Assembly (NCBI GenBank): GCA_963827275.1
Contig: CAWHAA010000005.1
Coordinates: 576,001 to 640,000 of the forward strand
DNA length: 64,000 nt
Reading direction: 5' to 3'
Source of the DNA: an uncultured Spirochaetota bacterium
Lineage (GTDB): Bacteria; Spirochaetota; UBA4802; UBA5550
Numbering within the stretch: the stretch's first letter is position 1; each line of letters starts with the position of its first letter. The notes beneath the pieces are model-generated. The model searched no databases and was not told the DNA's origin. It saw nothing but the letters and a program-made list of their open reading frames with translations. Positions 4,282 to 55,938 of the stretch are shown here, piece by piece. The translations under genes were made by a program, and so were the position numbers.

Positions 4282-4508
4282 GGGGTCAGAGTAACCGGCC
4301 TGCCGATAACTATCGGTCATGTGCCTGCTCTGACCCCGGGGACTACCGATAACTATCAGTCGTATGCTTACTCTGACACCGGGGATTACCGATAACTATC
4401 GGGACCCCTCCTCAGGTGTCAGCGCAGCGATATGCCGATAATCGTTAAAAGTTGCTCTGACACCCGAATTTCACCGATAACTATCGGTCAGCCGGTTACT
4501 CTGACCCC
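4282..4508. repeat. Composite REP/MITE-like element: 18-bp perfect terminal inverted repeats, 6 motif-A and 5 motif-B copies
   Basis: GGGGTCAGAGTAACCGGC at 4282-4299 and its reverse complement at 4491-4508; CCGATAACTATCGG-type copies at 4303, 4346, 4389, 4435 (degenerate), 4474. Confidence 0.9.
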
Positions 4509-4529
4509 CCGGATTCACATGCGGCATGG

Positions 4530-4724
4530 TCACCCGATGATCTCCCTGACGCGCCCCACCCGCCCGTCCGCCAGCCGGACCTTGATCCCGCGCGGATGCA
4601 CGGCGGAATTGGTGAGCACGTCTTTCACAATCCCCTCGGTAAGGACGCCGGTGCGCTGATCCTGCTTCAGCACAATTTTTACTTTTAGCCCCGGCCTGAT
4701 GGCACCGCGCTGCGTTCCGTCCAT
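4530..4724 (-). CDS. YwbE family small protein (DUF2196)
   Basis: IVLKQDQRTG, TEGIVKDVLT, HPRGIKVRL, GRV signature. Confidence 0.85.
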   Translation of the reverse strand: MDGTQRGAIRPGLKVKIVLKQDQRTGVLTEGIVKDVLTNSAVHPRGIKVRLADGRVGRVREIIG

Positions 4725-4755
4725 GGCTTCTCCTGGCGAACGGGAAGTCGCCCGC

Positions 4756-6921
4756 TTATCTCACCTGCTTGATAACATCGCTCATCTGGCGGGACTTTTC
4801 CTTCACGACCGCCGTAAGCTCCAGGATGCTGCTGTTCGCGATCGATACTTCCCTGGCCATCTCTGCAAGCCGGCCAATGGTGACGATCGCCGAGCTGATG
4901 GTCCGGCTCTGCCTGTCCGTCGCGCTCTCGATATTCTTTGCAAGATCATCCATGAGCCCCGCCTGCGCGACGATCCGGTTGACCGCGCTGTCCTGGCCGA
5001 GCACGAGGTTCTTCACCTCCTCGGTGCGGTTGGTTATGGTAGTGATGATGCTGAATGACTGCTCGAGCTGTTTCTTGGTGTTGTTCATCAGATCCGTGCC
5101 CTCGGTGATATCACTGATAATCGAGGTAATCTGGCTCGATATCTGCTTTGAATTGTCGGAAGTGGCAAGGGCGAGCTTCCCGATTTCATCCGCGACCACC
5201 GCAAAGCCGCGGCCGTGCTCCCCGGCCCGCGCCGCCTCTATCGCGGCGTTGAGGGAGAGCAGGTTGATCCGGTCGGTTATATCATCGATAATATTCATGA
5301 ATTCATCTATCGATTTTCCTCCCCTGTTGATGAGGGTCATTTTATCGATCAGGTTTTTCAGCGTGACCTCGGTCTCGTTGTTGGATTTCGATATGAGCGA
5401 TATGCTCTCCGCGACCGCCTGGCTCGCCCTGGTGATCGACTCCTGCGACTTCTGGAGCCCGCCGGAAAGCTCGCGGGTCCTGCTCCCCTCGTCGCGCTGG
5501 TTGACAATCGATGACTGGAGGCGCTCGTATTCGCCCTTCAGCAGGTTGAATTCCGACGACATGTCGGCGCTGGTCTTTTCCTGCTCGCCGGACATCTGCG
5601 AAAATTTATCACTGATGGTTGCCAGCTCGCCGCTCACCGCGAGCATCTTGTCCGTCATGTCGCTGACCGTGTTCACCACCTGTTCGAGATCTATGGCCCG
5701 CTCCTTGGCCACCGATTCGCTCTTCTCGAGGTTCTTGTTAAGGGTGACGACCTTGTTGCGCATCACGTTTATGTTTTCCGCAAGCGCTCCGGAGAGAAGG
5801 ATCGCGGTCGCCGTCGACCCGATCTGTATGCTCCAGTTGGTCAGGAAGCTCGGGGGCAGCACGCCGAACGTCTTCAGCGTGTAGAATATAATGCCCGTCA
5901 GCATAAAAAGCCAGCTAAAAAGGAAGAGCCTGGCATCGCGGGAGCCGCGCGCCACGAGGACCGCCGCCATGACGATCATGGTTGTCGATCCGATCAGGGC
6001 AAATGCTGTCGCGCCCTTTATCCCGATCTGGTAGGGCGCAACCAGTGAAACGATGCTCAAAACAATGCCGGGGACAATCATGACACCAATCGCGATCTTG
6101 TCCGAAACAGGATATTTTCTTTTTGTCTGCATAAAGGTACGGACCATCATCCCGCACCCCGCGACGATAAGGGAGATAAAGAAAGGAAGGCACTTGTTTG
6201 CCCACCAGGTCAGCCCGGGCCAGAGGTGCTGAAACGCCAGGCCGTTCAGGGTAAACTGGAAAAGCATCCACGTGGCAATAAAAAATATATAATAGAAATA
6301 ATTCACGTTGCGCGTTAACAACAATATCATCAGGTTATAAACAAGCAGGGCGAACATGATGCCGTAATAAGCCCAGAAGACGGGGAGATCCTGCTTGATT
6401 TTTTCGATGTACGTATTGACCGACAAGGCCGTGAGGGAAAAGTTGATCGAGCTCGTTGTCTGAATGCGCAGGTAGTATATCCCCCGGTCCTCGGGCGGGT
6501 CAATCCTGAACATTATATTCCTGTCATTTACCTCGCGGCCTGAATGCGGCAGGAGGTCCCCGGATCTTTTTTTCGTGTATGAACCGGCCCCGTCGGGAGA
6601 AAAGAGATCCACATAATCGAGCATCGGGTAATCGAGCTCAATGAAAAGAGAGGGGTCTCTGTATCCCTCGTTCTCAATCGCGAAACGGAACCAGTATACG
6701 GATTTCGTGAAGCCGAAATTGACTGATTCAGTCGCCGTTCGCTTCCACGCGGCGGATCCTCGTGCCGCATTAAAAGACAGATCGCCGTTTTTATCTTCGA
6801 GATATTCCGCGTTTTTAAAAACCGGATAACGTTCAAAGTTTTTTATGATGCCGATCGGTTCAAGGCTAAAGACCCTCAAGGGGAGAAATAGAAATACGAG
6901 AGCACAGATGTAGTACCTCAT
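4756..6921 (-). CDS. Methyl-accepting chemotaxis protein with 7TMR-DISM extracellular and 7TM domains
   Basis: NFGFTKSVYWFRF DISMED2-like region, 7 [30 protein letters not shown]. Confidence 0.92.
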   Translation of the reverse strand: MRYYICALVFLFLPLRVFSLEPIGIIKNFERYPVFKNAEYLEDKNGDLSFNAARGSAAWKRTATESVNFGFTKSVYWFRFAIENEGYRDPSLFIELDYPMLDYVDLFSPDGAGSYTKKRSGDLLPHSGREVNDRNIMFRIDPPEDRGIYYLRIQTTSSINFSLTALSVNTYIEKIKQDLPVFWAYYGIMFALLVYNLMILLLTRNVNYFYYIFFIATWMLFQFTLNGLAFQHLWPGLTWWANKCLPFFISLIVAGCGMMVRTFMQTKRKYPVSDKIAIGVMIVPGIVLSIVSLVAPYQIGIKGATAFALIGSTTMIVMAAVLVARGSRDARLFLFSWLFMLTGIIFYTLKTFGVLPPSFLTNWSIQIGSTATAILLSGALAENINVMRNKVVTLNKNLEKSESVAKERAIDLEQVVNTVSDMTDKMLAVSGELATISDKFSQMSGEQEKTSADMSSEFNLLKGEYERLQSSIVNQRDEGSRTRELSGGLQKSQESITRASQAVAESISLISKSNNETEVTLKNLIDKMTLINRGGKSIDEFMNIIDDITDRINLLSLNAAIEAARAGEHGRGFAVVADEIGKLALATSDNSKQISSQITSIISDITEGTDLMNNTKKQLEQSFSIITTITNRTEEVKNLVLGQDSAVNRIVAQAGLMDDLAKNIESATDRQSRTISSAIVTIGRLAEMAREVSIANSSILELTAVVKEKSRQMSDVIKQVR

Positions 6922-7250
6922 CGGAGTAAACGCTTCCTTGTGATAGTGATTTGCTTATCAGTAGCCCATTAATATTGCATACGTCAAGCGAGTTTTTAAA
7001 AATCAGACAGATAAAGTATACACGTTGAACTTGACATGTGTAAATTATAAATTATTCTGTTATTGTACAGAAATTACGGGTCACGCAATGATATGAAAAT
7101 AAAATTACCCCGCGTGTCTCCTGCAGCAACGACCCCGGAGGTCAGACTGCTCGCAGAGCAGGCATTCTCCAGGGCAGCGTGCGCGGTTCGGCAGGAACTA
7201 TTTTTCATCCCGCCGCGATCATGACGCCGAACGCGCATACCGGCAACCAC

Positions 7251-7703
7251 TCACAGAAAATACTTGATGGCCCGCGCGGCAAAATATGCGCCGGCGATAA
7301 GAAAAAACGGGAGCGAGAGGAAAAACATAAGCAAATCGTAGAGACTGACCACGGAAGGATTGAGAACCTTTTTCCCGAAATAATTATAATGATAGTATTC
7401 GGGCAGCCCTGCCCGGTGTCGCACCCGCGCGAAGATCGAAATCTGGAGAAGGATGATGGCCGTCATCAGGGTCCCGGACATGAGCCAGATGAGCACCGAG
7501 CTGTCGATCTCGTCGATTTTCGCCGGTCTGAAGATACTGATAACGATGCATGTCCCGGCGATGATGACATTGATGACCGTGGTATCGAGGAACCTTCTCA
7601 GGAAGCGCTCCCTGTGCGTCCTGACATAGGCAATGAGGTAGTAGATATGCACCGTGAAAGTAACGGATAACAATAACAGAAGAATTATTATTACCATGCC
7701 CAT
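7251..7703 (-). CDS. Hypothetical membrane protein (about 4 TM)
   Basis: Four hydrophobic segments; start MGMVIII uncertain. Confidence 0.65.
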   Translation of the reverse strand: MGMVIIILLLLLSVTFTVHIYYLIAYVRTHRERFLRRFLDTTVINVIIAGTCIVISIFRPAKIDEIDSSVLIWLMSGTLMTAIILLQISIFARVRHRAGLPEYYHYNYFGKKVLNPSVVSLYDLLMFFLSLPFFLIAGAYFAARAIKYFL

Positions 7704-7828
7704 TCTCCCGCATTTCAGCCGCACCCACCGCACTGAAACGATGCACAAGGAAGCGCCGTTTCATCCCTTCTTACCATGTCCGCCGCCATCGTTTTTTGTC
7801 AAGGGTCTTTATTGAAAAAACACGCGCC

Positions 7829-9817: not shown

Positions 9818-9847
9818 TAGGTCATTTGACGATACCCTGTCAATATA

Positions 9848-9890
9848 TTACTCTGACCCCCTCACTCATGCACTGATTTGCTCTGACCCC
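9848..9890 (-). repeat. Two motif-A copies 30 nt apart
   Basis: TTACTCTGACCCC 9848-9860 and TTGCTCTGACCCC 9878-9890. Confidence 0.85.
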
Positions 9891-24033: not shown

Positions 24034-24123
24034 GGTGTCAGAGTAAAAGGACGCATGATGTGTATAAATGAATCGTTATATTTAATAAATATATCAATAT
24101 TTTTTGGTTTGGGGTCAGAGTAA
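24034..24123 (+). repeat. Two motif-A copies
   Basis: GGTGTCAGAGTAA 24034-24046; GGGGTCAGAGTAA 24111-24123. Confidence 0.85.
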
Positions 24124-24156: not shown

Positions 24157-24774
24157 CTAGTAGAAATAATTATGGATCGCATGCAAATGTCGGCAGTTCA
24201 CAACAATCTTTTCAACTTCTCGCTTGAATGACTCATCGTATTGTATAGCAATCTCAGGATTATCATGGGTTCGCATAAGATGACGAAGCAGATCCGGTTC
24301 ATGTATTAAAATACTGTAATAATACCAATCTCTTGAAAAAATTGCAGCATAAAGGATTTCATCATCATTAAGAATTTCCCGCGCCCCGCATGAAAACACC
24401 TTCCCCCGATAACTCAGAAAACATTCATGTCGAAAAACGTGGTGTGGGCCTTCCCGATTGAGGAGGCATCCAACAGAACGTCCTTCGTCAACAAAACCCA
24501 CAAAAGGGCATTGAGGACAATCATCGAACAGCGCCGGCAGTGTCAGAGTAAACCCAGCATCATCTTGAACATAATAGGAACCGGTCATATTACTTCGGGA
24601 TGCCACCATCTTTCTAATAAAGTATTTCTCATTATACTCATTTATGACACCAGAACGACGACCAAAAAGTGCTTTAATTTCTTTTAAACTGGCCTTATAA
24701 TTATGGCTGCCACAACACAGTGCACATGATGCGCCATAACCCGGCCTGCAGATGTTAATAATATTATCGTCCAT
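24157..24774 (-). CDS. Cys-rich hypothetical protein (possible metal/Fe-S binding)
   Basis: SCALCCG, CPQCPFVG, GCLL, FSC, DWYYY; AT-rich. Confidence 0.65.
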   Translation of the reverse strand: MDDNIINICRPGYGASCALCCGSHNYKASLKEIKALFGRRSGVINEYNEKYFIRKMVASRSNMTGSYYVQDDAGFTLTLPALFDDCPQCPFVGFVDEGRSVGCLLNREGPHHVFRHECFLSYRGKVFSCGAREILNDDEILYAAIFSRDWYYYSILIHEPDLLRHLMRTHDNPEIAIQYDESFKREVEKIVVNCRHLHAIHNYFY

Positions 24775-24788: not shown

Positions 24789-24801
24789 GGAGTCAGAGTA
24801 A
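24789..24801 (+). repeat. Motif-A copy downstream of RAYT
   Basis: GGAGTCAGAGTAA. Confidence 0.75.
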
Positions 24802-25011: not shown

Positions 25012-25611
25012 TCATAAAAATAGACTCTCTGGAAAAATTCGCTTCCTGTACATATTCTCCAAATCCAGCAAAACCCTTTTCCGTTCAGCAAAGATTTTTC
25101 CCAATTGAAGAAAACATTCATGCAAGGTAATTTTAACTGGAGAAATGTAATTATCACTCAAGTAACACAGGATACTACTATAAGGATAATTTCGAGGATC
25201 AACAACTATTTTACTTTTAACCGGATTATAGGCCAGATAAAAGAAAACCGCGAAAAAAGTTGCGACAGGATCATTTGCTAACTCAATTATATTATCTCTA
25301 AATCGTTCATTCCAGAACGGACCAATTCTGTTCATTATACGATTATATCGCCTGGCAAATTGCGCCTTGATATATTGCATAATCCTTGAAATAGTCTCCC
25401 CTTCATTGATTGTCCTGATAAGAAAATGAAAATGGTTATCCATTAACGTATAAAAAATAAGCTCAAATTTATATTTTTCAAGAGCCTTCCTTAATACTTG
25501 TAGCATTAAATCTTTCATTTCATCAGAGCTCATGAGATGTTTCCCCTCTATGCATCGAGACATTGTATGATAGGTTAATTCTGGCATACAAATTCTATTT
25601 TTCCGTGGCAT
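25012..25611 (-). mobile_element. REP-associated tyrosine transposase (RAYT / TnpA-REP, Y1 HUH)
   Basis: MPRKNR N-terminus, YHTMSRC, LMDNHFHFL (HUH), GPFWNERF, YLAYNPV (catalytic Tyr), YPYSS; SD AAGGAG. Confidence 0.9.
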
Positions 25612-25697: not shown

Positions 25698-25937
25698 CGG
25701 GTCAGAGTAAAAAAAACAATCTTTGATCCATCTGTCAACATATGGGCCTGAGTAAATTATTCTAAGATAGTCACAATTATTACAAAATCATGCTAAATGT
25801 TAAGCACATGTAAAATAATCCCGAAATCAATCTCTATTAAATAAACCATATTGACAGTCGATTGGGTGATTACTATTTTAAATGATATTAATCATTTATA
25901 GAGTTTAATATCATTTAAAATATTGGGGTCAGAGTAA
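25698..25937 (+). repeat. Two motif-A copies in the RAYT/gatA divergent intergenic region
   Basis: CGGGTCAGAGTAA 25698-25710; GGGGTCAGAGTAA 25925-25937. Confidence 0.85.
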
Positions 25938-25952: not shown

Positions 25953-28844
25953 ATGATTGAATTAAACAGAAAAACATCCAAAGAAATCGTACAATTGGTC
26001 AACAAGCGAGCCATATCGTGTGAGGAATTGATCCGCCATTATCTATATATGATGGAAACGTATGATCCGCTCCTCGGTTGCTTTACATCGACACGCGACA
26101 CAGAGCAACTACTGATCCAGGCTCGTGAAAGCGACACCCGCAGAAGCCGGGGCGAGGAAAAAAGCCCGATTGATGGCATCCCCATAGCCATTAAGGACAA
26201 TATTCACTCGATGGGCATCCCTACTACCTGCGGATCGGCAATCCTTGAAGGATATCTTCCTCCTTACGATGCCACCACTGTGGCCAGATTGAAAGAACGA
26301 GGGGCTATAGTTATCGGTAAGACAAATCTTGACGAATTTGCCATGGGTTCAACATGCGAAAACTCCGCCATAAAAATAACCCGCAACCCCTGGGACACTG
26401 GCCGTGTACCGGGAGGCTCTTCAGGCGGATCAGCTGCCGCGGTATCGGCCGGTTTTGTGCCGTTTGCTCTGGGCAGTGACACCGGCGGCTCAATCCGCCA
26501 GCCAGCGGCATTTTGCGGCGTAACTGGCCTCAAGCCGACCTACGGTCTGGTCTCACGCTACGGGCTCGTCTCCTACGCATCGTCCCTGGACCAGATCGGG
26601 CCGTTGGCCCGCGACGCGTACGGCTGCGCCCTTCTCCTGAACGCAATAAGCGGGTTTGATCCCCATGACTCGACGTCGCTGCCAGGCCCCGCGGTCGACC
26701 ATTCAATGCACCTGTCAGCAGGCATTCAGGGGCTGCGGCTTGCGGTCATCCCGGAGCTTTTTACGGAAGGGATATCACCCCTGGTGCGCGAGCAATTCGA
26801 AGATTCGATACAACTGCTGGGCGGACTCGGGGCGATGATCGGGGAGGCCTCGATGCCGTCCCTTCATTATGCTATAGCAACATATTATTTTATCGCATGC
26901 GCCGAGGCAGCATCAAACCTTTCACGCTACGACGGCGTGAAATACGGATACCGGAGCGGGAGCCAGCGCGATTATCATGAGATGCTGTTCACCTCCCGCT
27001 CGCGCGGCCTTGGGCGCGAGGTTAAAAAGAGGATACTTCTCGGGAACTTCGTGCTTTCATCAGGCTATTACGACGAGTACTACTGTAAGGCGCTGAAGGT
27101 GCGTGCCTTTATACGGGAAGATATCATGAGGATTCTTGAGGCCTTCGATGCCATCGCCATTCCATCAACCCCTGACATCGCGTTTCCACTCGGCGAGAGC
27201 CAGAGCGACCCGATGAAAATTTACCTCTCGGACGTGACCACGGTTATCGCGAACCTTGCCGGGCTCCCCGCTCTTTCCGTGCCCGCGGGCATGGTTCATG
27301 GGATGCCGGTCGGGCTCCAGCTGATCGGGAGGCCCCTTGATGACGGCAGGCTCCTTGGTATCGCTGCGGCGTACGAGCGTGAGCGCACGACCTCGTTTTT
27401 TCCCCCGCTTGATGTGATGTCCGATACCCTGACCCGTACGGGCATGCTGGATACGCAAAAAAATAACGGCATTCCCGCGGAAAAGGCCGTATCGTCCTAC
27501 AGCCCGGAATTTATCGGCGGGATATCCCGTTCCTACATGGCCCGCTCAACAATGGCGCCGGTGCGCGTCCTCTGCAGCATGCTTGCACAGAGCATCAACC
27601 AGCGAGTCACCATCGCCGGATGGATCCACCGGAAAAAGAGCCTCGGCGGCATAGAATTCTACGAGCTCCGCGATAGGACCGGGTTTACCCAGCTCGTGCT
27701 CGAAGGCGGCAGGCTCGATGAAAGGATAAACCTGGAAACTGTAGTGGAAGTAACCGGGACCGCAACAAAGGAAGGCCGCAGTCCCTTTGATAACATCGAA
27801 ATAAAGGTGGAGTCAATTACTATCCTTGGGAGCGCTGATTCAAACCTGCCGTTGTCGCTAAACCGGCCCCTTACGAATGTGACCCTCCCGACAATACTGG
27901 ACAACCGCGTCATCTCGGTCCGGAACCCGGACATCCTCCGGGCCTTTCGCTTGCAGTCTGAGATCGTTCGGCTGTTTTCGGAATATCTCCGCGCGAATGA
28001 TTTTACCGAGATGAAGACCCCGAAGATCATAGCGTCCGGCACCGAGGGAGGCACCAACATCTTCAAGGTAAAATATTTCGGCCGCACCGCCTACCTCGCG
28101 CAGTCCCCGCAGTTCTACAAGCAGATAATGGTGGGAAGCGGCCTCGAGCGCGTATTTGAAGTCGGGCCGGTGTTCCGTGCCGAGCACCACGACACCGTGC
28201 GCCACCTGAACGAATACATCAGCATGGACTTCGAGATGGGGTTCATCACCGACGAGCAGGACATCATCGATATGCAGGAGGGGCTGCTCCGGCACATATT
28301 CGGCGGGCTGGCAGAGCTCCGGCCCGCATTCCTCGAGGCAGATGAGCCGCTGGCGTTCCCGGAGCGCATTCCCCGCGTCCATTACCTCGAGGCGCTCGAT
28401 ATCATCCGTTCCGCCGGCGGCCGCCTCGAGGAAGGCGATATCTCCCCCGAAGGGGAAAAAATACTGTGCAGCCATTTTGAAAGAACAGGCGGATCAGAGT
28501 TCGTATACGTGATCGGCTACCCGGTAAAAAAACGGCCAATGTACACCATGCCTGACGAGCGCGTGCCGGGTTACACGCGAAGCTTCGACCTGCTCTACCG
28601 CGGCATCGAGATAACTACCGGGGGCCAGAGGATCCATGACTACGACATGCTCAAAGACAATATGAAGATGCTCGGTTTCAATCCCGCGGAATTCCGCGAC
28701 TACCTGGAGACCTTCAGGTTCGGCATGCCGCCCCATGGCGGGCTCGGTATGGGGCTCGAACGCCTGACAATGAAGATTCTGAAACTGAAAAATATCCGTG
28801 AAGCTAGCCTATTCCCGAGGGATATCAACAGGATAACGCCGTAA
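25953..28844 (+). CDS. gatA: GatA amidase fused to archaeal-type non-discriminating aspartyl-tRNA synthetase (gatA::aspS)
   Basis: IKDNI, GGSSGGS, GSDTGGSIRQPA, SRYDG; then AGWIH, LRDRTG, LAQSPQFYKQ, FRAE, GGQRIH, GMPPHGGLGMGLERL in one 963-aa frame. Confidence 0.88.
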   Translation: MIELNRKTSKEIVQLVNKRAISCEELIRHYLYMMETYDPLLGCFTSTRDTEQLLIQARESDTRRSRGEEKSPIDGIPIAIKDNIHSMGIPTTCGSAILEGYLPPYDATTVARLKERGAIVIGKTNLDEFAMGSTCENSAIKITRNPWDTGRVPGGSSGGSAAAVSAGFVPFALGSDTGGSIRQPAAFCGVTGLKPTYGLVSRYGLVSYASSLDQIGPLARDAYGCALLLNAISGFDPHDSTSLPGPAVDHSMHLSAGIQGLRLAVIPELFTEGISPLVREQFEDSIQLLGGLGAMIGEASMPSLHYAIATYYFIACAEAASNLSRYDGVKYGYRSGSQRDYHEMLFTSRSRGLGREVKKRILLGNFVLSSGYYDEYYCKALKVRAFIREDIMRILEAFDAIAIPSTPDIAFPLGESQSDPMKIYLSDVTTVIANLAGLPALSVPAGMVHGMPVGLQLIGRPLDDGRLLGIAAAYERERTTSFFPPLDVMSDTLTRTGMLDTQKNNGIPAEKAVSSYSPEFIGGISRSYMARSTMAPVRVLCSMLAQSINQRVTIAGWIHRKKSLGGIEFYELRDRTGFTQLVLEGGRLDERINLETVVEVTGTATKEGRSPFDNIEIKVESITILGSADSNLPLSLNRPLTNVTLPTILDNRVISVRNPDILRAFRLQSEIVRLFSEYLRANDFTEMKTPKIIASGTEGGTNIFKVKYFGRTAYLAQSPQFYKQIMVGSGLERVFEVGPVFRAEHHDTVRHLNEYISMDFEMGFITDEQDIIDMQEGLLRHIFGGLAELRPAFLEADEPLAFPERIPRVHYLEALDIIRSAGGRLEEGDISPEGEKILCSHFERTGGSEFVYVIGYPVKKRPMYTMPDERVPGYTRSFDLLYRGIEITTGGQRIHDYDMLKDNMKMLGFNPAEFRDYLETFRFGMPPHGGLGMGLERLTMKILKLKNIREASLFPRDINRITP

Positions 28845-28856: not shown

Positions 28857-29074
28857 GGGGTCAGAGTAAAATCTATTTTTGGGTAATGGTGTCAGAGTAA
28901 CCGTGCTACCGATAACTATCGGTCATGTATGAAGGGGTCAGAGTAAAAGATAAAAAGATAAAGGGGTCAGAGTAAAAGATAATGATTAGAAAACAAATAA
29001 AGTCTACAAACATAAAAAATATGTCAGATATTTCCCGCTCCTGATATCTGGAGCCGGATAAGGGGTCAGAGTAA
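28857..29074 (+). repeat. Cluster of five motif-A and one motif-B copies between the gat genes
   Basis: A at 28857, 28888, 28934, 28963, 29062; B at 28909-28922. Confidence 0.92.
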
Positions 29075-29079: not shown

Positions 29080-30846
29080 ATGACTGATAAAGCCCGGATC
29101 AACATCGACAACCTGATAGAGCTCGGCTCATTTGAAGTGACCGTGGCAGAAAAGGAGCAGCTCCGGGGCGAGCTTGCCGAATTCCTGGAATACGCCCGGG
29201 TGATAAACGGCGCGCCCCAGCACCTGCCCCCGGCCAGCCATGCTGTTGATAAAGAACAACTGCTGCGAGACGACACGTCCGAGCCCCGGGGCGACCGTGC
29301 GCCGCTCCTCGGCAACGCGCCCGCCCTCCAGGGAGAAAGCTACCTGGTGCCGCCCCTCGCGGGAAGCGCCGCCACCGGTGAGGAAAAAAGCGTACCGTCT
29401 TCAGGCGCGGGTTCCGGAGTGTACGAGGTCGTGATCGGGCTCGAGGTGCACGCCCAGCTCAATACAAAGAGCAAGCTCTTCTGCTCCTGTCCGGTCGGGT
29501 TCGGGAGCGCGCCGAACGCCAATACCTGCCCCGTCTGTTCGGGCCAGCCCGGCGCCCTCCCGGTGCTGAACCGCGAGGCGGTCACCATGGCGATCATGGC
29601 GGGCCTGTCAATGGGATGCACCATCAACCGGCGATCACTCTTCGCGCGGAAAAACTATTTCTATCCTGACCTGCCCAAGGGCTACCAGATATCCCAGTTC
29701 GAGGAGCCTATCTGCAGCGGCGGCACCGTGGCTATCGAGCTTGATGGAATGATAAAAAATGTCCGCCTCAACAGGATCCACATGGAGGAGGACGCGGGCA
29801 AGCTCGTCCACGTGGGCGCACCGGGCATCTGGGGCTCCAAGGCGAGCGCGGTCGATTACAACCGGTCAAGCGTGCCCCTGGTCGAGATCGTCACCGAGCC
29901 TGATATCGGGTCGCCCGCCGAAGCGCGCGAGTACATGGTGATGCTCCGCTCCATCCTGGTGTCCCTCGGCATCTGTGACGGCAACATGGAAGAGGGAAAT
30001 CTCCGGTGCGACGCGAACGTGTCCCTGCGCGAGCGCGGCGACGAGGCCCTCGGCGTGAAGGTGGAGATCAAGAACATGAACTCCCTCAAGGCGATCGAGC
30101 GCGCCCTGTCCTACGAGATCGCGCGGCTCGGGACGATGAAAAAGAACAATATCCCCATACGCCAGGAGACCCGGCTCTGGGACGAAAGCGGCCAGAAGAC
30201 CTATTCGATGCGGAGCAAGGAGGAGTCGCACGACTACCGCTACTTCCCCGACCCCGACCTCCTGCCGCTCATGGTTGACGACGACTGGATCGAGCGCGCG
30301 CGGAAAGCGCTGCCGCCCATGCCGCTTGAGCGGAAGGCCCGCTACCAGCGCGAATTTTCCTTCAGCGAGCCTGAAGCGCGCCTCTTCATGATCAACCCCG
30401 CGTACGCGGACTTCTTTGAAAAGGCGCTCGGGTCCTATGACAACCCGCGCAACCTGGCGAACTGGCTCTTTTCCGAGCTGCTCTCCCACGAGGGCGACTT
30501 CGACCGCCTGCATATCACACCCGGGGATTTCGCCGCCTTTTTAAAAAGGGTCGACAGCGGCGAGATCAGCGGCAGGCTCGGCAAGGACATACTGCGCAAG
30601 GCCTTTGCCGGCAAAAAGGGCCTGGTCGAAATAATTGACGAAGAAGGCCTGAAACAGGTCACGGACCGCGGCGCCATAGAAGCCGCGGTGGACGAGGTGA
30701 TACGGGCCAATCCAGGCCAGGCCGCCGAATACCGAAGCGGCAAGACCAGGGTGCTCGGCTGGTTCGTGGGAGAGGTCATGAAGGCCACGAAGGGCAAGGC
30801 CAGCCCGGGGGTGGTGAATGAGGTGCTGAAGGAAAAATTGAAGTAA
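29080..30846 (+). CDS. gatB: GatC::GatB fusion, Asp/Glu-tRNA amidotransferase
   Basis: N-terminal about 93 aa GatC-like (LRDD...LLGNAP...YLVPP), G/S linker, then VIGLEVHAQL, KNYFYPDLPKGYQISQ, EEDAGK, DYRYFPDPDL. Confidence 0.9.
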   Translation: MTDKARINIDNLIELGSFEVTVAEKEQLRGELAEFLEYARVINGAPQHLPPASHAVDKEQLLRDDTSEPRGDRAPLLGNAPALQGESYLVPPLAGSAATGEEKSVPSSGAGSGVYEVVIGLEVHAQLNTKSKLFCSCPVGFGSAPNANTCPVCSGQPGALPVLNREAVTMAIMAGLSMGCTINRRSLFARKNYFYPDLPKGYQISQFEEPICSGGTVAIELDGMIKNVRLNRIHMEEDAGKLVHVGAPGIWGSKASAVDYNRSSVPLVEIVTEPDIGSPAEAREYMVMLRSILVSLGICDGNMEEGNLRCDANVSLRERGDEALGVKVEIKNMNSLKAIERALSYEIARLGTMKKNNIPIRQETRLWDESGQKTYSMRSKEESHDYRYFPDPDLLPLMVDDDWIERARKALPPMPLERKARYQREFSFSEPEARLFMINPAYADFFEKALGSYDNPRNLANWLFSELLSHEGDFDRLHITPGDFAAFLKRVDSGEISGRLGKDILRKAFAGKKGLVEIIDEEGLKQVTDRGAIEAAVDEVIRANPGQAAEYRSGKTRVLGWFVGEVMKATKGKASPGVVNEVLKEKLK

Positions 30847-30852: not shown

Positions 30853-32331
30853 CTACTTGAAGCGCCAGAGGGTCATTTGTGGATGATCTTCAAAAAAACA
30901 TGTGTCCACCAGTAAAATCTTACCATGATAATCCAGTATCATGGAGGCTCCAGCTATTGAATTATGAGTCATCTCATATGGAAGATACCCACCAAGCCCA
31001 AAAGAATAATCCAACATGCCATTTTCATAATAACGCCAAATGACAAAACCCTTGTTATAATAGCCTGATACTAGTAATCTATTCTTTGAATCTGAAACAA
31101 TTGTCATGCCCTTCTGAAATTCATAATAATCTTCAGAAATTCTATAACTTCTTACCATTCCGTTTAGTTCCAAAATTCTCATCAAGCTCACCATTTTCAT
31201 CAAAACACCAAACCGCCATCGTTAACAAAGATGTCATTTCGTTTTGACTAGTACCACTAACCAATATTCTATCCTGTGAGTCAATTATTACGCTCATTCC
31301 ATAATCGAGACAACTTGATTGAGCATTAAAAGAAGCATCATCTCCAACAAAAAGGCCACCAACACAAAAATTCAAATCTGGTGTACCATTTTCATGATAC
31401 CTCCATAACGACATACATTTATAACAAATTGGATAATCAAGAAACTCATCATCTTCATATGCAACACTACCACAGGCTACAATTTTATCTTCTTCATCAA
31501 TAATAAAATCATTACATAATGTTTGAATAGCTGGAGCCCGTTCACCTTCAGAAGCATCACTAATTATAACACCTGTCGAATTAAATCCTTCATCTAATAT
31601 TCCATCACAGTTATATCGCCATAGTGCCATATATATTTTAGTATCAGGTGATAACTATCCCTCCACATACAACAATTCTTCCTCTACTATCAATTTTTAT
31701 TTTTTTGCCAATAGTATCTCCACCAAAAGCCGGGTTGTACTCATGAGCGTCAAAAACCGCAAATATAGTAAGCTTGTTAATCTTGGCACGTTCATCATAT
31801 TTCCAGATGATCATATTATAATGACCAGATTTTTCAACAAAACCAGTAATGTAAATTATCCCACTTGAATCTATTGTCATTCCACTCGCCGAACTTAAAC
31901 TATATAACTCTCCTTTCACATCTGCAGTAGAACCTGTGATATAGCCATTCGTACCGAATCCCAAATCCGGTGATCCATCGGGATTAAAACGCCAGAGAGC
32001 CATATCAGACACTGTATCTTTTAAAATTTGACCCGCAACATATATTCTCCCAAACATGTCGACTACAACAGACATACCCGCTGAATCAGCATCCTGATCT
32101 CCTGGAATATGACCAGATGCAACACCATAATTGCCGAAGCTTATCATCAAGAACACCTGTTGCGTAATAGGGCTCGATAAATGCAGGAAGCGGAATACTT
32201 TTCAAAGGATCCATTGAATCAGTATAAAGATTTCCACAATGAAGTGACAGGATTGAGACGAAGAAAGCGAAGGTAATGAGTATTGCAAAGGATTTATTCT
32301 GCATTCTCACCACAAACTTGAACCAGGGCAC
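30853..32331 (-). pseudogene. Delta-60-type beta-propeller repeat protein (probable lipoprotein), split in four frames
   Basis: Recurrent MALWRY-xxG-LD-xFG and D-xGRI-V-G repeats across ORFs 32086-32331, 31644-32156, 31142-31630, 30853-31203; each junction a +1 shift, possibly sequencing error. Confidence 0.7.
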
Positions 32332-32447
32332 AACAATCCCCCGAACTGAAAATATTTTTGTTTAATTTTTAATAATGAATAGGATGTAATAATATTTTTA
32401 AAAAAATATAATGAATATTTATAATATGATTTAAATAGTTACTATTC

Positions 32448-32487
32448 AAATACAAAGGGGCACATATAAATGCGCCCCTTTGTATTT
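32448..32487. terminator. Intrinsic terminator hairpin
   Basis: AAATACAAAGGGGC / GCCCCTTTGTATTT inverted repeat downstream of the 32508 gene. Confidence 0.8.
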
Positions 32488-32507
32488 TTGTTTGCTAAAC
32501 TCTACCA

Positions 32508-34460
32508 TTATGGCATATATGTTCCAGGCAGCGTAATTTCCGTGCTGCCATTCTGCTTGATTTTATATGTTCCACCGCTCGCTTCTCCACCGGTTATGAT
32601 AAGGTCAAAAATAATATACCCATTGTAAAGTCCAGTCACATTTAACTGACCCTTTATAGTGCCATCTATATTATTATAATCTGATAGAACAGTTGTCTGA
32701 TCGCCATCAAGCGTTAGATAAATGTCTGAATAATTTGTAAAGGTCATGACCGCTTTCGCAGATAATATCGTAACATCATATAAACAGTTACCATTCCCAT
32801 CTTTGTCATAAACCTTTTTATCAGAGGTTCCCAGCTCTCCCAGCTTTTCAAACGCACTTTCTAGTTCATTGTACGCCTCGCTAAAGAACTCCTCGTTTGT
32901 AATTGCTCTGTACCCGGCATCAGGATCGCTGCTGCCACCTTCCCCGTTGGCATTGAAAGGCGCTACTTTATACGAAAAAATGCCCGGTGCAACTGCTGTA
33001 TCGGTATAGGTCGTATCTGCTATATTACCGCCCACCTGAACCTGGCCACTGCTGCTGATGCGGTACACCTTGTAATAAGTCGCGCTGGTTGCTGCTGCCC
33101 ATGTCACGGTCACGCCACCAGTTATACCATCCGAAGCTGAACAACTGGGAACCTTTGACGGGACACTGTCATTCGACTTGGTAAAGCCTTCTTCAACTGG
33201 ACTTTCGGTACTTTCGTTACCTTCTTCGTCAACGGCAGTGACTATATAGTAATAGTGGGAGCCCTGCGCGACATCTGAATCAACATAGTAATATAGCACA
33301 GTAGAACTCTCGCTTGTCCTGAATTTCCATGAATAATTAGCAGCGAGGTGGTTACCTGCCAGGTCCGTCACCGCCGTGGTTATAGTCGCGGTGTATTCCT
33401 TCCCTGCCATCAATTCGCTTGACGGGGTAAACACTCCGGTGTTGGATATCGTGCCTGCAACGCTGGCCCCATCCACGGTCAACTTGAAGCTCGACGAAGT
33501 CATGGTAGCAGGATTAATCGCCTCGCTAAAGGCAACTGATACTTTCGCATTAAGGGCGATATCAGTCGCACCGCTTGCGGGACTTACCTGTGACACAGTG
33601 GGAGCAGTTGTGTCGCTACAGGCGATCTGGACTGGCTGGACATTGATTTCAGTTGACCAGTCAGAGTTGAAATCAAGAAAATCTAGTGGAACCCAGAGGA
33701 AACGAACAATTTCATAAAAATTTATCATACGAATTGACTTACTGCTGACAATCTTAATATACCTTTTACCGTCAACTGTAACAGGATAGCAGGTACCATC
33801 ATTACCCAGATATTTATTAAATTCAGCGACTATCTTATCCTGGGTCCAATTGGTACCCAATGGGAACGCACCAACAAAATCAATCGTTCCTCTAAAATTC
33901 CCTCCAATAAATAGATCAATTGTATAGTGCTCAACAGTAGGATGGATGCCCCATGGAAGATATATACCATAGCCTATGTCCCGTTTGGACTGATACGTTG
34001 CTTGCATTACCGGGTTTTCACAGGTCCCACCGGTGGGGGGTGTTGTTACAACATCAGGTATTACTCCGGGATCAGTGGTGACCACGCTGGAATCGGAGTT
34101 AGAAAGATCAGATGCATAGATTGTAGCAATCTGGTCGGTGAATGGCCCGGCAACATTACTTGATCGGTATATTCGGTAGCTCTCAGCGTTGGAAATTGTG
34201 GCCCAGTTGATGCCAACCTTGTCGGTATATGTTCCATCTGTCGCCATAACAGCGGTAGGACCAAAGTAAGGTTCGATCGGATCTTCTGGTGTCTGACCAC
34301 AAAAATCCCCTATACATTCAACACCGCCAGAGCTAAAGGCAACCCCCGCCACGCCAAGAAGTGAGGCGATTGGGTTAGTCTTTTTCCCATCAGAATTACA
34401 TCCCGGCAGAAGCATCAGGGAGATGGCCGACAGCACTATTACCAGTGTGAGCTTTTTCAT
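32508..34460 (-). CDS. Surface lipoprotein with Ig-like (Big_5/SbsA) and fibronectin-III-like domains
   Basis: Lipobox LPGC; DTTAPTV-SP-GAT-FSE-YSWKFRT Ig-like; W-x5-YRIYRS and YKVAPFN FN3-like. Confidence 0.8.
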   Translation of the reverse strand: MKKLTLVIVLSAISLMLLPGCNSDGKKTNPIASLLGVAGVAFSSGGVECIGDFCGQTPEDPIEPYFGPTAVMATDGTYTDKVGINWATISNAESYRIYRSSNVAGPFTDQIATIYASDLSNSDSSVVTTDPGVIPDVVTTPPTGGTCENPVMQATYQSKRDIGYGIYLPWGIHPTVEHYTIDLFIGGNFRGTIDFVGAFPLGTNWTQDKIVAEFNKYLGNDGTCYPVTVDGKRYIKIVSSKSIRMINFYEIVRFLWVPLDFLDFNSDWSTEINVQPVQIACSDTTAPTVSQVSPASGATDIALNAKVSVAFSEAINPATMTSSSFKLTVDGASVAGTISNTGVFTPSSELMAGKEYTATITTAVTDLAGNHLAANYSWKFRTSESSTVLYYYVDSDVAQGSHYYYIVTAVDEEGNESTESPVEEGFTKSNDSVPSKVPSCSASDGITGGVTVTWAAATSATYYKVYRISSSGQVQVGGNIADTTYTDTAVAPGIFSYKVAPFNANGEGGSSDPDAGYRAITNEEFFSEAYNELESAFEKLGELGTSDKKVYDKDGNGNCLYDVTILSAKAVMTFTNYSDIYLTLDGDQTTVLSDYNNIDGTIKGQLNVTGLYNGYIIFDLIITGGEASGGTYKIKQNGSTEITLPGTYMP

Positions 34461-39824: not shown

Positions 39825-39882
39825 GGGGTCAGAGTAACCGATAACTATCTATAAATCCGGGGTCAATCAGGGGTCAGAGCAA
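39825..39882 (+). repeat. Motif A directly abutting motif B, plus a second motif A
   Basis: GGGGTCAGAGTAA-CCGATAACTATC 39825-39849; GGGGTCAGAGCAA 39870-39882. Confidence 0.88.
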
Positions 39883-41020: not shown

Positions 41021-41022
41021 TT

Positions 41023-50878: not shown

Positions 50879-50916
50879 TCCGGGGCCGCTGACGGCGCGG
50901 CCCCGGCCGGCAGCCG

Positions 50917-52500: not shown

Positions 52501-52501
52501 A

Positions 52502-53833
52502 TCAGGACATCGACTTCGCCCGCGCCGCGAGCTTTTCACGGAGCGCTGCCTCGTCTTTCGGAAAAGACCAGAGCATGACAAGAAGGAATATGCCGCATAC
52601 CACCCAGAAGAGGTTCGCTATATTAAAGGCGGTGAGCCTTCCGAACCTGACGATAAAAAAGCTGATGATGACCGGGCCGAAGCCCTTGCCCAGGTTGTCC
52701 GTAAGGTTAAAAAGGGCGAAGATGGAGCCGCGCGTCTCCGGCGTGTTCACGTTCAGGAGCATGGCTTTGACGTTCGGCCCGGTGATGGATATCAGGAAGC
52801 CGGTCACGAATCCGAGGGCCAGCGGTACCGCGACGTTCTGGTCGGCCGCGCCCGCGCTGCCCGGGTAATTGAGGAGGAGCGCCATGGGAATGATCCCTGC
52901 AAGGGTCGAGGCGCCGCACAGGAGCGGCAGGTATTTCGCCCCGATGTTGTACACCTTGTTCCCGAGCAGGCCGCCGATGAAGGCCCCCAGGATCGCGGCT
53001 CCGCCGATCACCATCACGATCAGGGTCGCCGCCTCCACCGAGAAGCCCTTGTCCTGGGAATAAAAATCATTCAGGTAGATAAAGAAGACGCCCCAGGGCA
53101 CGGTGCCCGGGATGCCCTGGAGAAAGGCGAGGATATTGCTTTTGACCCTGAAAAGCTCCCGGTACTGTTTCCAGTTGATCCTGCCCGTATATGCCATCCC
53201 CTTCTCGATAAGGTCCCGGAGGCTCTCTTCCGTGATCCCGCGCGGCGGCTCCTTCACGCTGAACAGCATGAGGGCGCAGAGGAAAAAATTCGGTATGGCG
53301 ACGATGATGAACGGGAGGCGCCATCCCATTGCAGGCCCGATGAAGCCGGCCAGGAGCTGTCCCCCGGCGATGCCGAGTCCCTCGGCAAGGGCGATCCAGG
53401 CCGTCGCCGTGGCGCGGTTGCCGTGGGAAAAATAATCCCCGATCATCGAGTAGGTAAGCGGGATGGCGCCGCCGATGCCGATGCCCGTCAGCGCGCGGAG
53501 CCAGAAGAGCTGTTCGTAATTCTGCGCGAAGCCGGTCAGAAGGCAGGGGATCTCCCCGATGATAATGACTGCGATAAAGAGTTTTTTTCTCGGAACGAGG
53601 TCGGTCAGGTAACCGATGCCCAGCGTTATCAGGCTGCCGAGCACCCAGAACACCGCCGATATGTTTCCCCCGAGCATGACGTCACGCTGAACGTCATCGA
53701 GCCCCAGGTCGCGCGCGATCTGGGTCAGGTTGGGCGCCATGAGGTTCTGGTCGGCAAACAGGAACAGGTTCATGAGGGCCAGCAACATCACGGCATAGAG
53801 CTCTCTGCCGACAAACCGGGCCTTCTTGTCCAT
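52502..53833 (-). CDS. MFS transporter (spinster-like)
   Basis: About 12 TM; FADQNLMAP, RALTGIG, WRLPF, EPPRG. Confidence 0.88.
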   Translation of the reverse strand: MDKKARFVGRELYAVMLLALMNLFLFADQNLMAPNLTQIARDLGLDDVQRDVMLGGNISAVFWVLGSLITLGIGYLTDLVPRKKLFIAVIIIGEIPCLLTGFAQNYEQLFWLRALTGIGIGGAIPLTYSMIGDYFSHGNRATATAWIALAEGLGIAGGQLLAGFIGPAMGWRLPFIIVAIPNFFLCALMLFSVKEPPRGITEESLRDLIEKGMAYTGRINWKQYRELFRVKSNILAFLQGIPGTVPWGVFFIYLNDFYSQDKGFSVEAATLIVMVIGGAAILGAFIGGLLGNKVYNIGAKYLPLLCGASTLAGIIPMALLLNYPGSAGAADQNVAVPLALGFVTGFLISITGPNVKAMLLNVNTPETRGSIFALFNLTDNLGKGFGPVIISFFIVRFGRLTAFNIANLFWVVCGIFLLVMLWSFPKDEAALREKLAARAKSMS

Positions 53834-53921
53834 CGGAACACCTCCGCGTGCGTTTTCCGGATCATGGCACGGCGTCGGCCCTCTGTCAATTCTTTAACCG
53901 GGCCTCCTGCCCTGCGCGACG

Positions 53922-55535
53922 TTATTCTTCCAGTATCAGCGCTTCATACGGTTCGATTTCAATCACGCTGCCCGGGTCCCCGCTCCTCCCGGCGGCGCTT
54001 GAGAGCACCACGCCCCCCGGCCGGAACCCATCAATGCGGAGCACCCTCTTTCTGCAGGAAAAATTCAGCGCCACGAGCAGGCACTCTCCGTCCCCTTCCC
54101 TGAAGAATGTCAGCACCTCCGGGTCCCCGCCGACAAACCGGAGGGAGCCGCGCTGGAGCGCCGGCCGCTTCTTTCGAAGCGCGATCAGCTCACGGTAGAA
54201 GCAGAGGAGGGAGCCCGGTTCGCCCATCTGCGCCGCGACATTCGCTTCCCGATAGTTATCGGTGACCGGGAGCCATGGATCAGAAAGGGAAAAGCCGGCA
54301 TTGGGCCCCGCCGACCACTGCATCGGCGTGCGCTCCGGGTCGCGCCCTCTATAGAAAGGCCAGTACTTCTTCCCGACCGGGTCCTGTATCCTGCGGCGTG
54401 GCACGCGCCCGTTCTTCATGCCGATCTCCTCGCCGTAGTAGAGAAATGGCGTGCCGCGCGCCGTGAAGAGCAGGGCCGCAAGCACCTTCGCTTTTTTCAC
54501 CCCGTACCTGTCGCGGCACCACCGGGTCATGCTGCGCGGCTGGTCGTGGTTATTGAGCACAAGGCTCGGCCATCCCCCGGCCGGGATCGCGGCGTACCAG
54601 CGCAGGAGACACTCGCGGAAGCGGGCCGCGCCGTACTTCGAAAAGAGGAGTGAAAAGTCAAACGCGAGGTGCAGCTCATCCGTGCCGCTGCCAAGGTACG
54701 ACGCGGCTGTCTTCACGCCGCCCGGCGACGCTTCGTAGGTCTCTCCAACCATCATGCGATTATCATACTCGTCCAGAACCTTCCGCAGCTCCCGCAGCAC
54801 GCCGTGGGTCTCCGGCCTGTTCTGGTCATACACGTGCTTCTGTAAATCGTAGGGCCGGGGTGCGTTGGGGCCCCAGCCGAACGGGTTGCTGCGGAACCGG
54901 TCGTCCTTGACGAGCCAGACGACCGCGTCGAGGCGGAAGCCGTCAACGCCCCGGTCGAGCCAGTAGCGTATCTCGCCGAACACCGCGTCGCGGAGCGCCG
55001 GGGTGCGCCAGTTCAGGTCAGGCTGCTCCTTCAAGAATGAATGAAGATAATACTGCCGGGTCGTATCGTCCCATTCCCACGCCCTGCCGCCGAAGGCCGC
55101 CATCCAGTTGTTGGGCGGCCTCCCCCTTTTCCCGTCATGCCAGATGTACCAGTCCCGCCTGGGATTGTCCCGCGAAGCACGGGACTCGACAAACCAGGGG
55201 TGCAGGTGCGACGTGTGGTTGATCACCAGGTCCATGACGATCTTTATCCCGCGCCGGTGCCCTTCGCGTATCAGGCGGTCAAAATCCTCATCGGTCCCGA
55301 ACACCGGGTCGATGCCGCGGTAATCGGAGATGTCGTATCCGAAGTCGAACATGGGAGAGGTGTTGATCGGCGAAAGCCAGATCGCGTCGATCCCGAGCCA
55401 TGACAGGTAATCGAGCTTTTCAATAATACCGGGGAGATCGCCCACACCGTCGCCGCTGGCGTCATAAAAGCTCCTCGGATAGATCTGGTAGATGGTGCCG
55501 TGCTTCCACCAGGTGAATTCGCCTGAATGCCGCAT
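53922..55535 (-). CDS. GH13 alpha-glucosidase (oligo-1,6-glucosidase-like)
   Basis: YQIYPRSF, DLVINHTS, GFRLDA, NHDQPR, YYGEEIGM, RTPMQW. Confidence 0.93.
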   Translation of the reverse strand: MRHSGEFTWWKHGTIYQIYPRSFYDASGDGVGDLPGIIEKLDYLSWLGIDAIWLSPINTSPMFDFGYDISDYRGIDPVFGTDEDFDRLIREGHRRGIKIVMDLVINHTSHLHPWFVESRASRDNPRRDWYIWHDGKRGRPPNNWMAAFGGRAWEWDDTTRQYYLHSFLKEQPDLNWRTPALRDAVFGEIRYWLDRGVDGFRLDAVVWLVKDDRFRSNPFGWGPNAPRPYDLQKHVYDQNRPETHGVLRELRKVLDEYDNRMMVGETYEASPGGVKTAASYLGSGTDELHLAFDFSLLFSKYGAARFRECLLRWYAAIPAGGWPSLVLNNHDQPRSMTRWCRDRYGVKKAKVLAALLFTARGTPFLYYGEEIGMKNGRVPRRRIQDPVGKKYWPFYRGRDPERTPMQWSAGPNAGFSLSDPWLPVTDNYREANVAAQMGEPGSLLCFYRELIALRKKRPALQRGSLRFVGGDPEVLTFFREGDGECLLVALNFSCRKRVLRIDGFRPGGVVLSSAAGRSGDPGSVIEIEPYEALILEE

Positions 55536-55777
55536 ACTCTGACCCCCGGACATGTTTGGTGTACCATACGTTGAATCTCTTCCCTTCATCTATAACCATG
55601 CATCACATCGGCTCACCGGGTATATATTTCATGTGTGATAGCATGGAAAACGGGCAAATGCAATACTAATTTGCCTGAAAAATCATCAAAATCTCTTAAA
55701 AAAACCCTGTATATCCCGTGTAAAAAAATTATCACCCGCACGGAAAAGATTTACCAGAATTATACCCTAACCCTAAG

Positions 55778-55938
55778 GGGGTCAGAGTAACCATGCCACC
55801 GATAACTATCGCCCCAACAGGGATCAGAGCAGCCATTCCACCGATAACTATCGCCCCAACAGGGATCAGCGCAACCATGCCACCGATAACTATCGGCCCA
55901 ACAGAGGCCAGAGCAGCCATGCCACCGATAACTATCGG
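55778..55938 (+). repeat. 42-bp tandem array (about 4 units) built from motif A - 8 nt - motif B
   Basis: CCGATAACTATCG at 55799, 55841, 55883, 55925, each preceded by a GGG(G/A)TCAG-type motif. Confidence 0.95.

Follow-up and report, generated by a model that had tools for sequence, protein, structure and literature searches.

A RAYT-type transposase and two interleaved repeat words in the genome of an uncultured spirochaete

A 64,000-nucleotide stretch of the genome of an uncultured Spirochaetota bacterium (assembly GCA_963827275.1, contig CAWHAA010000005.1, forward strand; hereafter the window, G000:C5:576001-640000, from a genome, G000, of 4.13 Mb in 11 contigs) carries the gene of a transposase of the repetitive extragenic palindrome (REP)-associated tyrosine transposase (RAYT) type together with many copies of two short words: motif A, a non-palindromic 13-mer (GGGGTCAGAGTAA), and motif B, a 14-nt palindromic word (CCGATAACTATCGG), which frequently meet at a distance of 8 nt. 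RAYTs are thought to act on hairpin-forming REPs, and the locus therefore raises the question of whether A and B are the tag and the hairpin of a single REP, as an original prediction made from this DNA had proposed, or two separate repeat families. With moderate confidence, we favour the second reading, in which two families are interleaved at 7–9 nt and amplified in tandem, A being a RAYT/TIRYT-type end motif and likely a recognition or joining site, and B an older word that is likely kept by a protein or by sequence drive. The resulting arrays resemble bacterial interspersed mosaic elements (BIMEs) and are likely a variant of known REP-type mosaics rather than a single two-part element.

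The comparison covered 61 genomes, among them 16 genus relatives of G000 (17 genus genomes in all, with 44 others in the set), and the presence of this RAYT was scored at E <= 1e-10. Counted at no more than one mismatch in the window and the genome alike, A has 19 sites in the window, where 100 shuffles give an expectation of 0.01, and B has 10, where 0.00 are expected. Genome-wide, the counts reach 163 for A and 209 for B, far over chance, with 145 of the 209 B copies (about 70%) exact and the logo extending B to a 16-nt palindrome (aCCGATA-AC-TATCGGt). The earlier estimate of about 26 A copies in the window agrees with this picture, its 26 positions comprising 11 exact matches, eight with one mismatch, three with two and four with three or four, the last group being degenerate array members at 4415, 55820, 55862 and 55904. 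Its estimate of about 12 B copies compares with the 10 sites plus one copy with two mismatches, a tolerance at which B matches both strands.

The RAYT units of the genus are bounded by same-direction A copies. At all 13 genus RAYT loci examined, TTACTCTGACCCC stands 75–95 nt before the start codon, after a T-run when read on the gene strand, and a second A in the same direction lies 160–270 nt past the stop codon. Two RAYT copies on different contigs share a block of 855–868 bp, three mismatches apart, that extends from the T-run and A to the end of the second A. Neither B nor a hairpin was seen at the unit ends in any of the 13 loci, and B at up to two mismatches is missing within 850 nt of the Y1 domain match at all six such loci in the genome. 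The RAYT insertion of the window, between a 205-aa open reading frame (ORF) and gatA, is shared only by G000 and G009, the closest of the sampled relatives, and in six other species no A was found at the insertion site, including the place of the copy at 24789, or at the place of the copy at 25925. All eleven A copies that had been reported near the intact RAYT lie within 3.4 kb of its gene at 25015-25611. At five loci (L010-L014, in G004, G016, G012, G001 and G015), an extra inverted A lies 45–65 nt upstream of the left-end A, forming a potential stem-loop before the unit.

Among the relatives, too, the abundance of A tracks the RAYT. Each of the 16 genus relatives is enriched in A, with 7–146 copies, while the 11 of the 61 genomes that lack this RAYT hold 0–4 copies each, which is the level of a reversed-pattern control; A is thus not equally abundant where this RAYT clade is missing, and its proposed link to the RAYT stands. 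The motif opens with GGGGTCAG, a fit to the consensus GGGGWSAS, and exact GGGGWSAS, always with the core GGGGTCAGAG and with variable last three bases, borders the gene at 26 of the 36 RAYT homologue loci sampled in the order. The flank layout is inverted in some other genera (L097-L099) and direct in the genus. Of 92 loci, 58 carry the TTAC-form of A on the G-rich strand (p = 0.016), and a lone A copy is often found where GC-rich DNA gives way to AT-rich DNA. The association of a RAYT subgroup with GGGGWSAS repeats, which the original prediction had invoked, is indeed published (Di Nocera 2013, PMC3733652). Altogether, A is likely the recognition or joining site of the RAYT.

The enzyme paired with A appears to be of the RAYT type. 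Six Y1_Tnp genes occur in the genome, five of them forming one 199-aa family with an HUH motif (NHFHF) and a Y-x3-NP motif. In the window protein these are H60-F-H62 and Y125-x3-N129-P130, and across 39 homologues H60-F-H62 and N129 do not vary, while Y125 is kept in 90% or more. The protein matches Pfam Y1_Tnp at E = 3.4e-12 and scores 77 bits with the NCBIfam model NF047646 (REP_Tyr_transpos), just below the cut-off of 80, compared with 25.9 bits and a cut-off of 55 for the IS200 model NF033573. An AlphaFold (AF2) model built from the 39 homologues (predicted local distance difference test, pLDDT, 95) has as its best fold match in the PDB 4ER8_A, the Escherichia coli TnpA-REP bound to a REP hairpin (E = 1.8e-7, TM-target 0.75, 171 aligned columns), and the IS200/IS605 TnpA structures (IS608, ISDra2) rank below it and align over about 112 columns. 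A search of the PDB by sequence returned weak ISDra2 matches only (E = 0.007). The predicted structure thereby points to a RAYT-class fold that is closer to TnpA-REP than to IS200 TnpA. Pfam assigns Y1_Tnp alone to the 199 residues and detects no helix-turn-helix (HTH) domain, and the model shows a helical C-terminal extension of about 55 aa. The homologues are Spirochaetota proteins of about 196–200 aa that their sources name transposase or RayT.

For B, which the original prediction had cast as the hairpin of the RAYT's REP, the evidence runs the other way. Its abundance is independent of the RAYT across relatives. B-rich genomes occur outside the genus (G017, G021, G028, G045 and G047), and four of them are poor in A (95 B and 2 A in G017, 113 and 0 in G021, 150 and 8 in G028, 52 and 2 in G045), while the converse is seen in G032 (34 A, 0 B) and G029 (23 A, 1 B). 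No Y1_Tnp match was obtained in G021, a genome 89% complete, and G045 has only a Y1_Tnp fragment with a stop codon, so that two of the B-rich relatives lack this RAYT. For B, this is the outcome that the original prediction had named as refuting it. In the four B-rich, A-poor genomes no B-8-B arrays were found, and the 30 B copies displayed from such genomes are isolated words with unrelated flanks. Together with the missing B at the RAYT unit ends and the weak fold and genic positions described below, these data speak against casting B as the hairpin of this RAYT's REP. The accompanying idea that A and B are separable modules is upheld, as single-module loci exist and the phyletic spread of the two words differs.

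Moreover, B sits in housekeeping genes, with no insertion in the two cases examined. Of the 45 single B copies in G000, 26 fall within open frames of at least 200 aa, and of the 16 such ORFs tested, Pfam confirms 12 as genes. These include the genes for NAD-dependent DNA ligase (ligA), ketol-acid reductoisomerase, EPSP synthase, a Mur ligase, an HrpB helicase and a radical-SAM enzyme. B codes for P-I-V/T-I-G or x-D-N/S-Y-R, according to the frame and strand in which it is read. When these peptides occur in long ORFs, they are coded by B in 7 of 8 cases for PIVIG, 4 of 6 for PITIG, 6 of 14 for DNYR and 11 of 24 for DSYR, where codon usage predicts 0.02–0.46, although some of the long ORFs in this count may be read-through arrays. 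The B in a GH13 glycosidase gene of the window (T-D-N-Y-R) shows no insertion relative to its orthologues, of which 3 of 12 have the exact word and three more are one base off. In ligA, G000 has an exact B (P-I-T-I-G), and at the corresponding position five other genera, of which three are B-rich, use CCGATCAACATCGG-type codons; the difference consists of substitutions alone, with no insertion. The fold of B is weak, a 5-bp stem at -3.7 kcal/mol, and its strand bias is none (50 vs 47). A text search of the searchable literature library gave 0 occurrences of the B word and its complement and, for A, matches to unrelated primers. B is likely an older palindromic word that has been kept by a DNA-binding protein or by sequence drive rather than by the RAYT.

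What unites the two words is their regular spacing, which is realised in several arrays of the window. The features relevant to the argument are as follows (positions within the window, strand, description; numbers between motifs are spacer lengths in nt):

4282 to 4508, no strand assigned: mixed array, A+ 8 B 8 A- 8 B 8 A- 8 B, a degenerate stretch, then A- 9 B 8 A-; flanking genes convergent
9848 to 9890, minus: two A (TTACTCTGACCCC and TTGCTCTGACCCC) 17 nt apart, without B
24034 to 24123, plus: two A at a GC-rich/AT-rich boundary, downstream of the 205-aa ORF
24789 to 24801, plus: A with one mismatch, downstream boundary of the RAYT unit
25015 to 25611, minus: gene of the RAYT-type Y1 HUH transposase, 199 aa (from Pfam, NCBIfam and the AF2 fold)
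25698 to 25710, plus: A with one mismatch, bounding the RAYT unit upstream, 87 nt before the start codon of the RAYT gene and after a T-run on the gene strand
25925 to 25937, plus: A, 15 nt upstream of the gatA::aspS start codon
28857 to 29074, plus: five A copies with a single B (A 8 B) that fill the junction of aspS and gatC
39825 to 39882, plus: A abutting a B-like word with two mismatches, then an A variant (GGGGTCAGAGCAA)
54249 to 54262, no strand assigned: single exact B inside the GH13 glycosidase gene, coding T-D-N-Y-R
55534 to 55546, minus: A with one mismatch, near the GH13 gene start
55778 to 55938, plus: tandem direct array of four [A 8 B 7-8] units with a period of 42 nt, upstream of an ORF6N-domain gene

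The genome contains 149 A/B loci, defined after adding weaker in-register copies: 51 mixed, 45 with a single B, 35 with a single A, 13 with several copies of A only and 5 with several copies of B only. Of the 51 mixed loci, 33 have a first A-B gap of 7–9 nt and 17 one of exactly 8 nt (for the 33, binomial p = 8e-31 against a uniform null over 0–60 nt, in which the 7–9-nt class is 3/61). Among all adjacent A-B pairs the proportion is 164 of 201, a count inflated by tandem copies. The anticipated genome-wide distance peak is therefore present, and the six spacers first read as 8 nt in the window are all exactly that length. Gaps also peak at 8 nt for B-B and at 7–8 nt for A-A, the array periods are 42-43, 22 and 20-21 nt, and module-to-module distances of about 20–22 bp are alike for A-B, B-B and A-A. 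Spacers are near-identical inside one array and unrelated from array to array, and across loci they are saturated while the modules remain exact, apart from a weak cross-locus likeness such as the CC..GC.A type after A. A is found in either orientation relative to B, and about 4 of 69 multi-copy loci contain an inverted A pair, most arrays being direct. Folding of the direct arrays does not exceed that of shuffled sequence; a good fold is confined to the rare inverted A+...A- arrangement, as in the REPIN-like pair at 4282-4337 (-16.1 kcal/mol).

Zero-spacer junctions, in which GGGGTCAGAGTAA is followed at once by CCGATAACTATC.., occur at window positions 39825-39851 (the B-like word with two mismatches at 39838), at G000:C5:332532-332558 and at G014:C30:109776-109802, hence in two species. 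In addition, a second class of A-to-B junctions with 21–26-nt spacers is seen in G016, G007, G001, G011 and G008; many of these spacers enclose a small AT-rich palindrome, possibly a third module. Some B-B spacers (G010:C8:280385-280722 and G000:C4:402139-402172) hold pieces of the A core (GCTCTG, GTCAGAG), so that deletion within A-B arrays may have given rise to at least some B-only arrays. The deserts of A and B coincide, lying on contigs C2, C6 and C11 and in the first 400 kb of C4 (C4:1-400000), where there is no A and almost no B and outside which the other contigs carry 3–12 loci per 100 kb; the GC skew changes sign within the desert contig C2. The deserts may reflect a chromosomal domain, a second replicon or an effect of binning.

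The spacing extends beyond G000. In the 16 genus relatives, A-to-B junctions of 0–30 nt fall at 7–9 nt in 51 of 102 cases and B-to-A junctions, counted from coordinates, in 42 of 84, where a uniform distribution gives about 10% for each. The fixed spacing claimed for the window thus recurs in 11 other genus species, with unrelated spacers and with many of the junctions single rather than arrayed. In a further family (f6), all four A-to-B gaps are 6–7 nt and the B-to-A gaps are scattered. B-8-B arrays occur in 10 of the 17 genus genomes and in 0 of the 44 others, five of which have at least 50 B copies.

The arrays are young, being strain-variable and having empty orthologous sites in relatives. 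The 227-nt array at 4282-4508 corresponds to a 77-nt intergenic region free of A and B at the orthologous site of G009. At the aspS-gatC junction, which holds five A and one B in G000, the G009 site has three A with other inter-A segments, the segments of one genome being wholly replaced in the other; the end of aspS meets the gatC start codon directly in three relatives (L051, L055 and L061), and unrelated inserts are found in other species. In L052, L057 and L064 (G001, G006 and G015), the junction carries a different insert of 130–150 nt with GC-rich inverted-repeat ends (cccccgcagggggcg ... ccccctcagggggacag), which looks like another miniature element family of the genus. Among strains, a 29-nt [A + 16 nt] unit that G000 carries at 28932 is an indel, and contigs from three of four metagenome runs, each run from a different study, lack it. 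Back-joints at 28891-28928 and 39861-39882 may stem from cross-mapping from other array loci and were set aside as evidence.

A mechanism consistent with these observations can be proposed by analogy with Y1 HUH enzymes such as those of IS608 and TnpA-REP. The RAYT would nick and rejoin single-stranded DNA at A, probably on the lagging-strand template, and exchange between same-strand A copies would lead to the insertion, loss or duplication of A-bounded segments. From such exchange, direct repeats, wholesale inter-A replacement and unit-sized indels would follow. Events may land at a fixed distance from B if B is held by a symmetric protein or by a small hairpin, and slippage or A-to-A exchange would then multiply units of 20–22 and 42–43 nt. 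As the cause of the offset we tentatively favour such a landmark effect of B. A bolder version, in which B is a landmark word actively written into the chromosome, even into essential genes and against their codon preference, and a domesticated RAYT deposits or recombines A-ended units exactly 8 nt off it, so that host word and HUH enzyme form a two-component system giving helically phased, strain-variable arrays, seems to us distinctly doubtful.

Several points weigh against the reading of two interleaved families. The contact of the RAYT with A or B is argued from related enzymes, and the strand bias of A is modest and could be explained by gene orientation. Next to four B-only arrays, no DNA-binding candidate was found among the neighbours, which are unrelated metabolic and transport genes. 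REPs can outlive their RAYT, as noted for E. coli in Di Nocera 2013 (PMC3733652), and because of this the B-rich genomes without RAYT leave some room for a past RAYT-B link. The restriction of arrays to the genus represents one clade and thus one event. A fixed, two-sided 7–9-nt offset with unrelated spacers, in many species and in a second family, is also what a true functional composite would produce. Furthermore, A-A and B-B arrays, with their 7–8-nt and 8-nt gaps, keep the same register of about 21 nt, for which a footprint of B alone is insufficient, and the common deserts of A and B hint at a common process.

Of the rival explanations, the one that survives best is the bipartite substrate of the original prediction, in which the RAYT docks on a B hairpin and cuts or joins at an A tag 8 nt off, with B as a co-opted older word; on balance we regard it as unlikely. 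It would account for the 7–9-nt offset on both sides of B in G000, 11 other species and family f6, and for the confinement of arrays to genomes in which A, B and this RAYT clade co-occur, and it gains from the structural match to TnpA-REP in complex with a REP hairpin (4ER8), the strand bias of A and the TTAC at the start of the reverse complement of A, TTAC being the cleavage word of IS608. However, A stands alone at RAYT genes, with no B or hairpin at any of the 13 sets of unit ends and no B at up to two mismatches within 850 nt of the Y1 match at six loci, and 35 single A loci and 13 A-only arrays lack B altogether. B is plentiful without A or any Y1 transposase, its hairpin is weak (-3.7 kcal/mol, 5-bp stem), and A occurs in both orientations relative to it.

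A rather less probable reading takes A and B each as a protein site, placed in a 21–22-bp register of two helical turns for cooperative binding on one face of the helix, with an operator-like or nucleoid-organising role and with the RAYT merely sharing A by history. The common distances of about 20–22 bp for A-B, B-B and A-A would fit such a selected arrangement, as would the 16-bp palindrome of B, typical of dimer sites, its presence in genes against codon preference, the A/B deserts in common and the one array just upstream of an ORF6N DNA-binding gene. Yet the genes on either side of the arrays are unrelated, and the regions that hold arrays include convergent ones and promoters; the arrays are also strain-variable and missing at orthologous sites of sister species. 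About 70% of B copies (145/209) are exact, which is unusual for regulator sites, and the candidate protein was not found among the neighbours of the four B-only arrays. With only two ORF6N matches in the genome, a general association of the arrays with ORF6N genes was rejected.

Very improbable is the common descent of all copies from one composite 43-nt A-8-B-8 repeat without separable modules, whose spacers drifted while keeping their length because indels are rarer than substitutions, for although spacers are near-identical within an array and show the weak CC..GC.A likeness after A across loci, A and B differ in phyletic distribution, 80 loci hold a single module, the ligA B differs from the codons of relatives by substitutions alone and the GH13 B shows no insertion, spacers are saturated where modules are exact, and inter-A segments have been replaced wholesale between G000 and G009.

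Among known systems, the A side matches the TIRYT/TIRtron type. IS200/IS605 enzymes, a more distant relation, use a hairpin and a nearby tetranucleotide. Here, likeness to IS200/IS605 elements extends to a Y1 HUH enzyme, same-strand non-inverted end signals, a strand bias, a TTAC start of the reverse complement of A and two near-identical units on different contigs. Unlike these elements, the protein falls short of the IS200 model (25.9 bits vs 55), no subterminal hairpins were seen at the unit ends, and some 160 copies of the end motif are scattered through the genome by themselves.

The repeats that flank TIRYT genes have GGGGWSAS in common and are moderately abundant, occurring as dimers or clusters, according to Di Nocera 2013 (PMC3733652). 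The present system agrees with this description in having a RAYT-like Y1 gene flanked by non-REP GGGGWSAS repeats (A being GGGGTCAG....), a moderately abundant repeat family with dimers and clusters and, in L097-L099, an inverted layout. It departs from it in the genus flanks, which are direct rather than terminal inverted (13/13), in the short protein of 199 aa with no HTH domain detected, and in the repeat itself, a 13-nt non-palindromic word interleaved with a second, unrelated palindrome. TIRYTs have been tentatively equated with TnpA-Y1 subclass 2.1 by Quentin 2018 (PMC6006769), a study that found nothing REP-like near those genes and leaves spirochaetes unmentioned in its main text, with 0 occurrences of the term. 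Subclass 2.1 proteins are long, with a C-terminal HTH or DnaA-like domain; the protein here has 199 aa, Y1_Tnp as its only Pfam match and a helical C-terminal extension of about 55 aa.

REPs and BIMEs share with the arrays the RAYT-class fold (4ER8 as best match), a short repeat in more than 100 copies, composite regular arrays between genes and one REPIN-like pair (4282-4337). BIMEs are regularly spaced mosaic REP arrays (Nunvar 2010, PMC2817692). Unlike REPs, A is non-palindromic and has no GTAG or CGTC tag. REPs are extragenic, imperfect palindromes of 20–40 nt with a stable hairpin fold, whereas B is 14–16 nt long, folds weakly, lies as a single copy in at least 12 Pfam-confirmed genes and is not linked to the RAYT. 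REPtrons have inverted, palindromic, GTAG-tagged REPs, in contrast to the direct 13-mer flanks without visible hairpin at all 13 loci, and REPs in BIMEs alternate in orientation and are joined by linker motifs, whereas the arrays here are mostly direct.

Highly iterated words, such as HIP1 of cyanobacteria, uptake signal sequences and the sites of Noc, SlmA and ParB, are kept by drive or by protein binding. B resembles them as an exact short word that is over-represented in coding and non-coding DNA, uses non-preferred codons, leaves no insertion scars and is common to several families of the order. It differs from them in being a 14–16-nt palindrome with only 100–230 copies, in forming tandem arrays with an unrelated transposase motif in one genus, and in that no uptake, methylation or binding system has been linked to it. 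A CRISPR array, with repeats of 23–50 nt and unique spacers of similar length, was rejected, the period being 42–43 nt and the 8-nt spacers near-identical within an array. Readings as integron attC sites or as an RNA element were likewise ruled out on anatomy (period, spacer identity and lack of fold).

The gene downstream of the A copy at 25925 is a transamidosome fusion (25953-28844), a single ORF that combines an Amidase domain (GatA), an OB fold and a class II aminoacyl-tRNA synthetase of the AspRS/AsnRS type, and the next ORF (29080-30846) combines GatC and GatB. On the other side, the Cys-rich 205-aa ORF (24157-24774, minus strand), to which no Pfam or NCBIfam family was matched, lies beside a DNA methylase gene in at least seven other species of the genus. 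Its inclusion in the mobile unit was ruled out, since it is a native syntenic gene in seven other species. Adjoining gatCB, the region 30876-34045 is low in GC (0.34-0.38), and its cover by contigs is almost nil in metagenome runs X1 and X2 and complete in X3, so that it may be a strain-variable island.

The direct flanks, the short protein without a detected HTH domain and the second, interleaved word set this system apart from the TIRYT description. A RAYT-fold enzyme paired with a 13-nt non-palindromic direct-repeat word would widen the range of substrates expected of domesticated HUH transposases. B, situated in housekeeping genes and present in several families of a spirochaete order without any transposase, may represent a binding-site or sequence-drive system that has yet to be described. 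If the enzyme sets the 8-nt register, these arrays would show directly how an HUH enzyme chooses its target.

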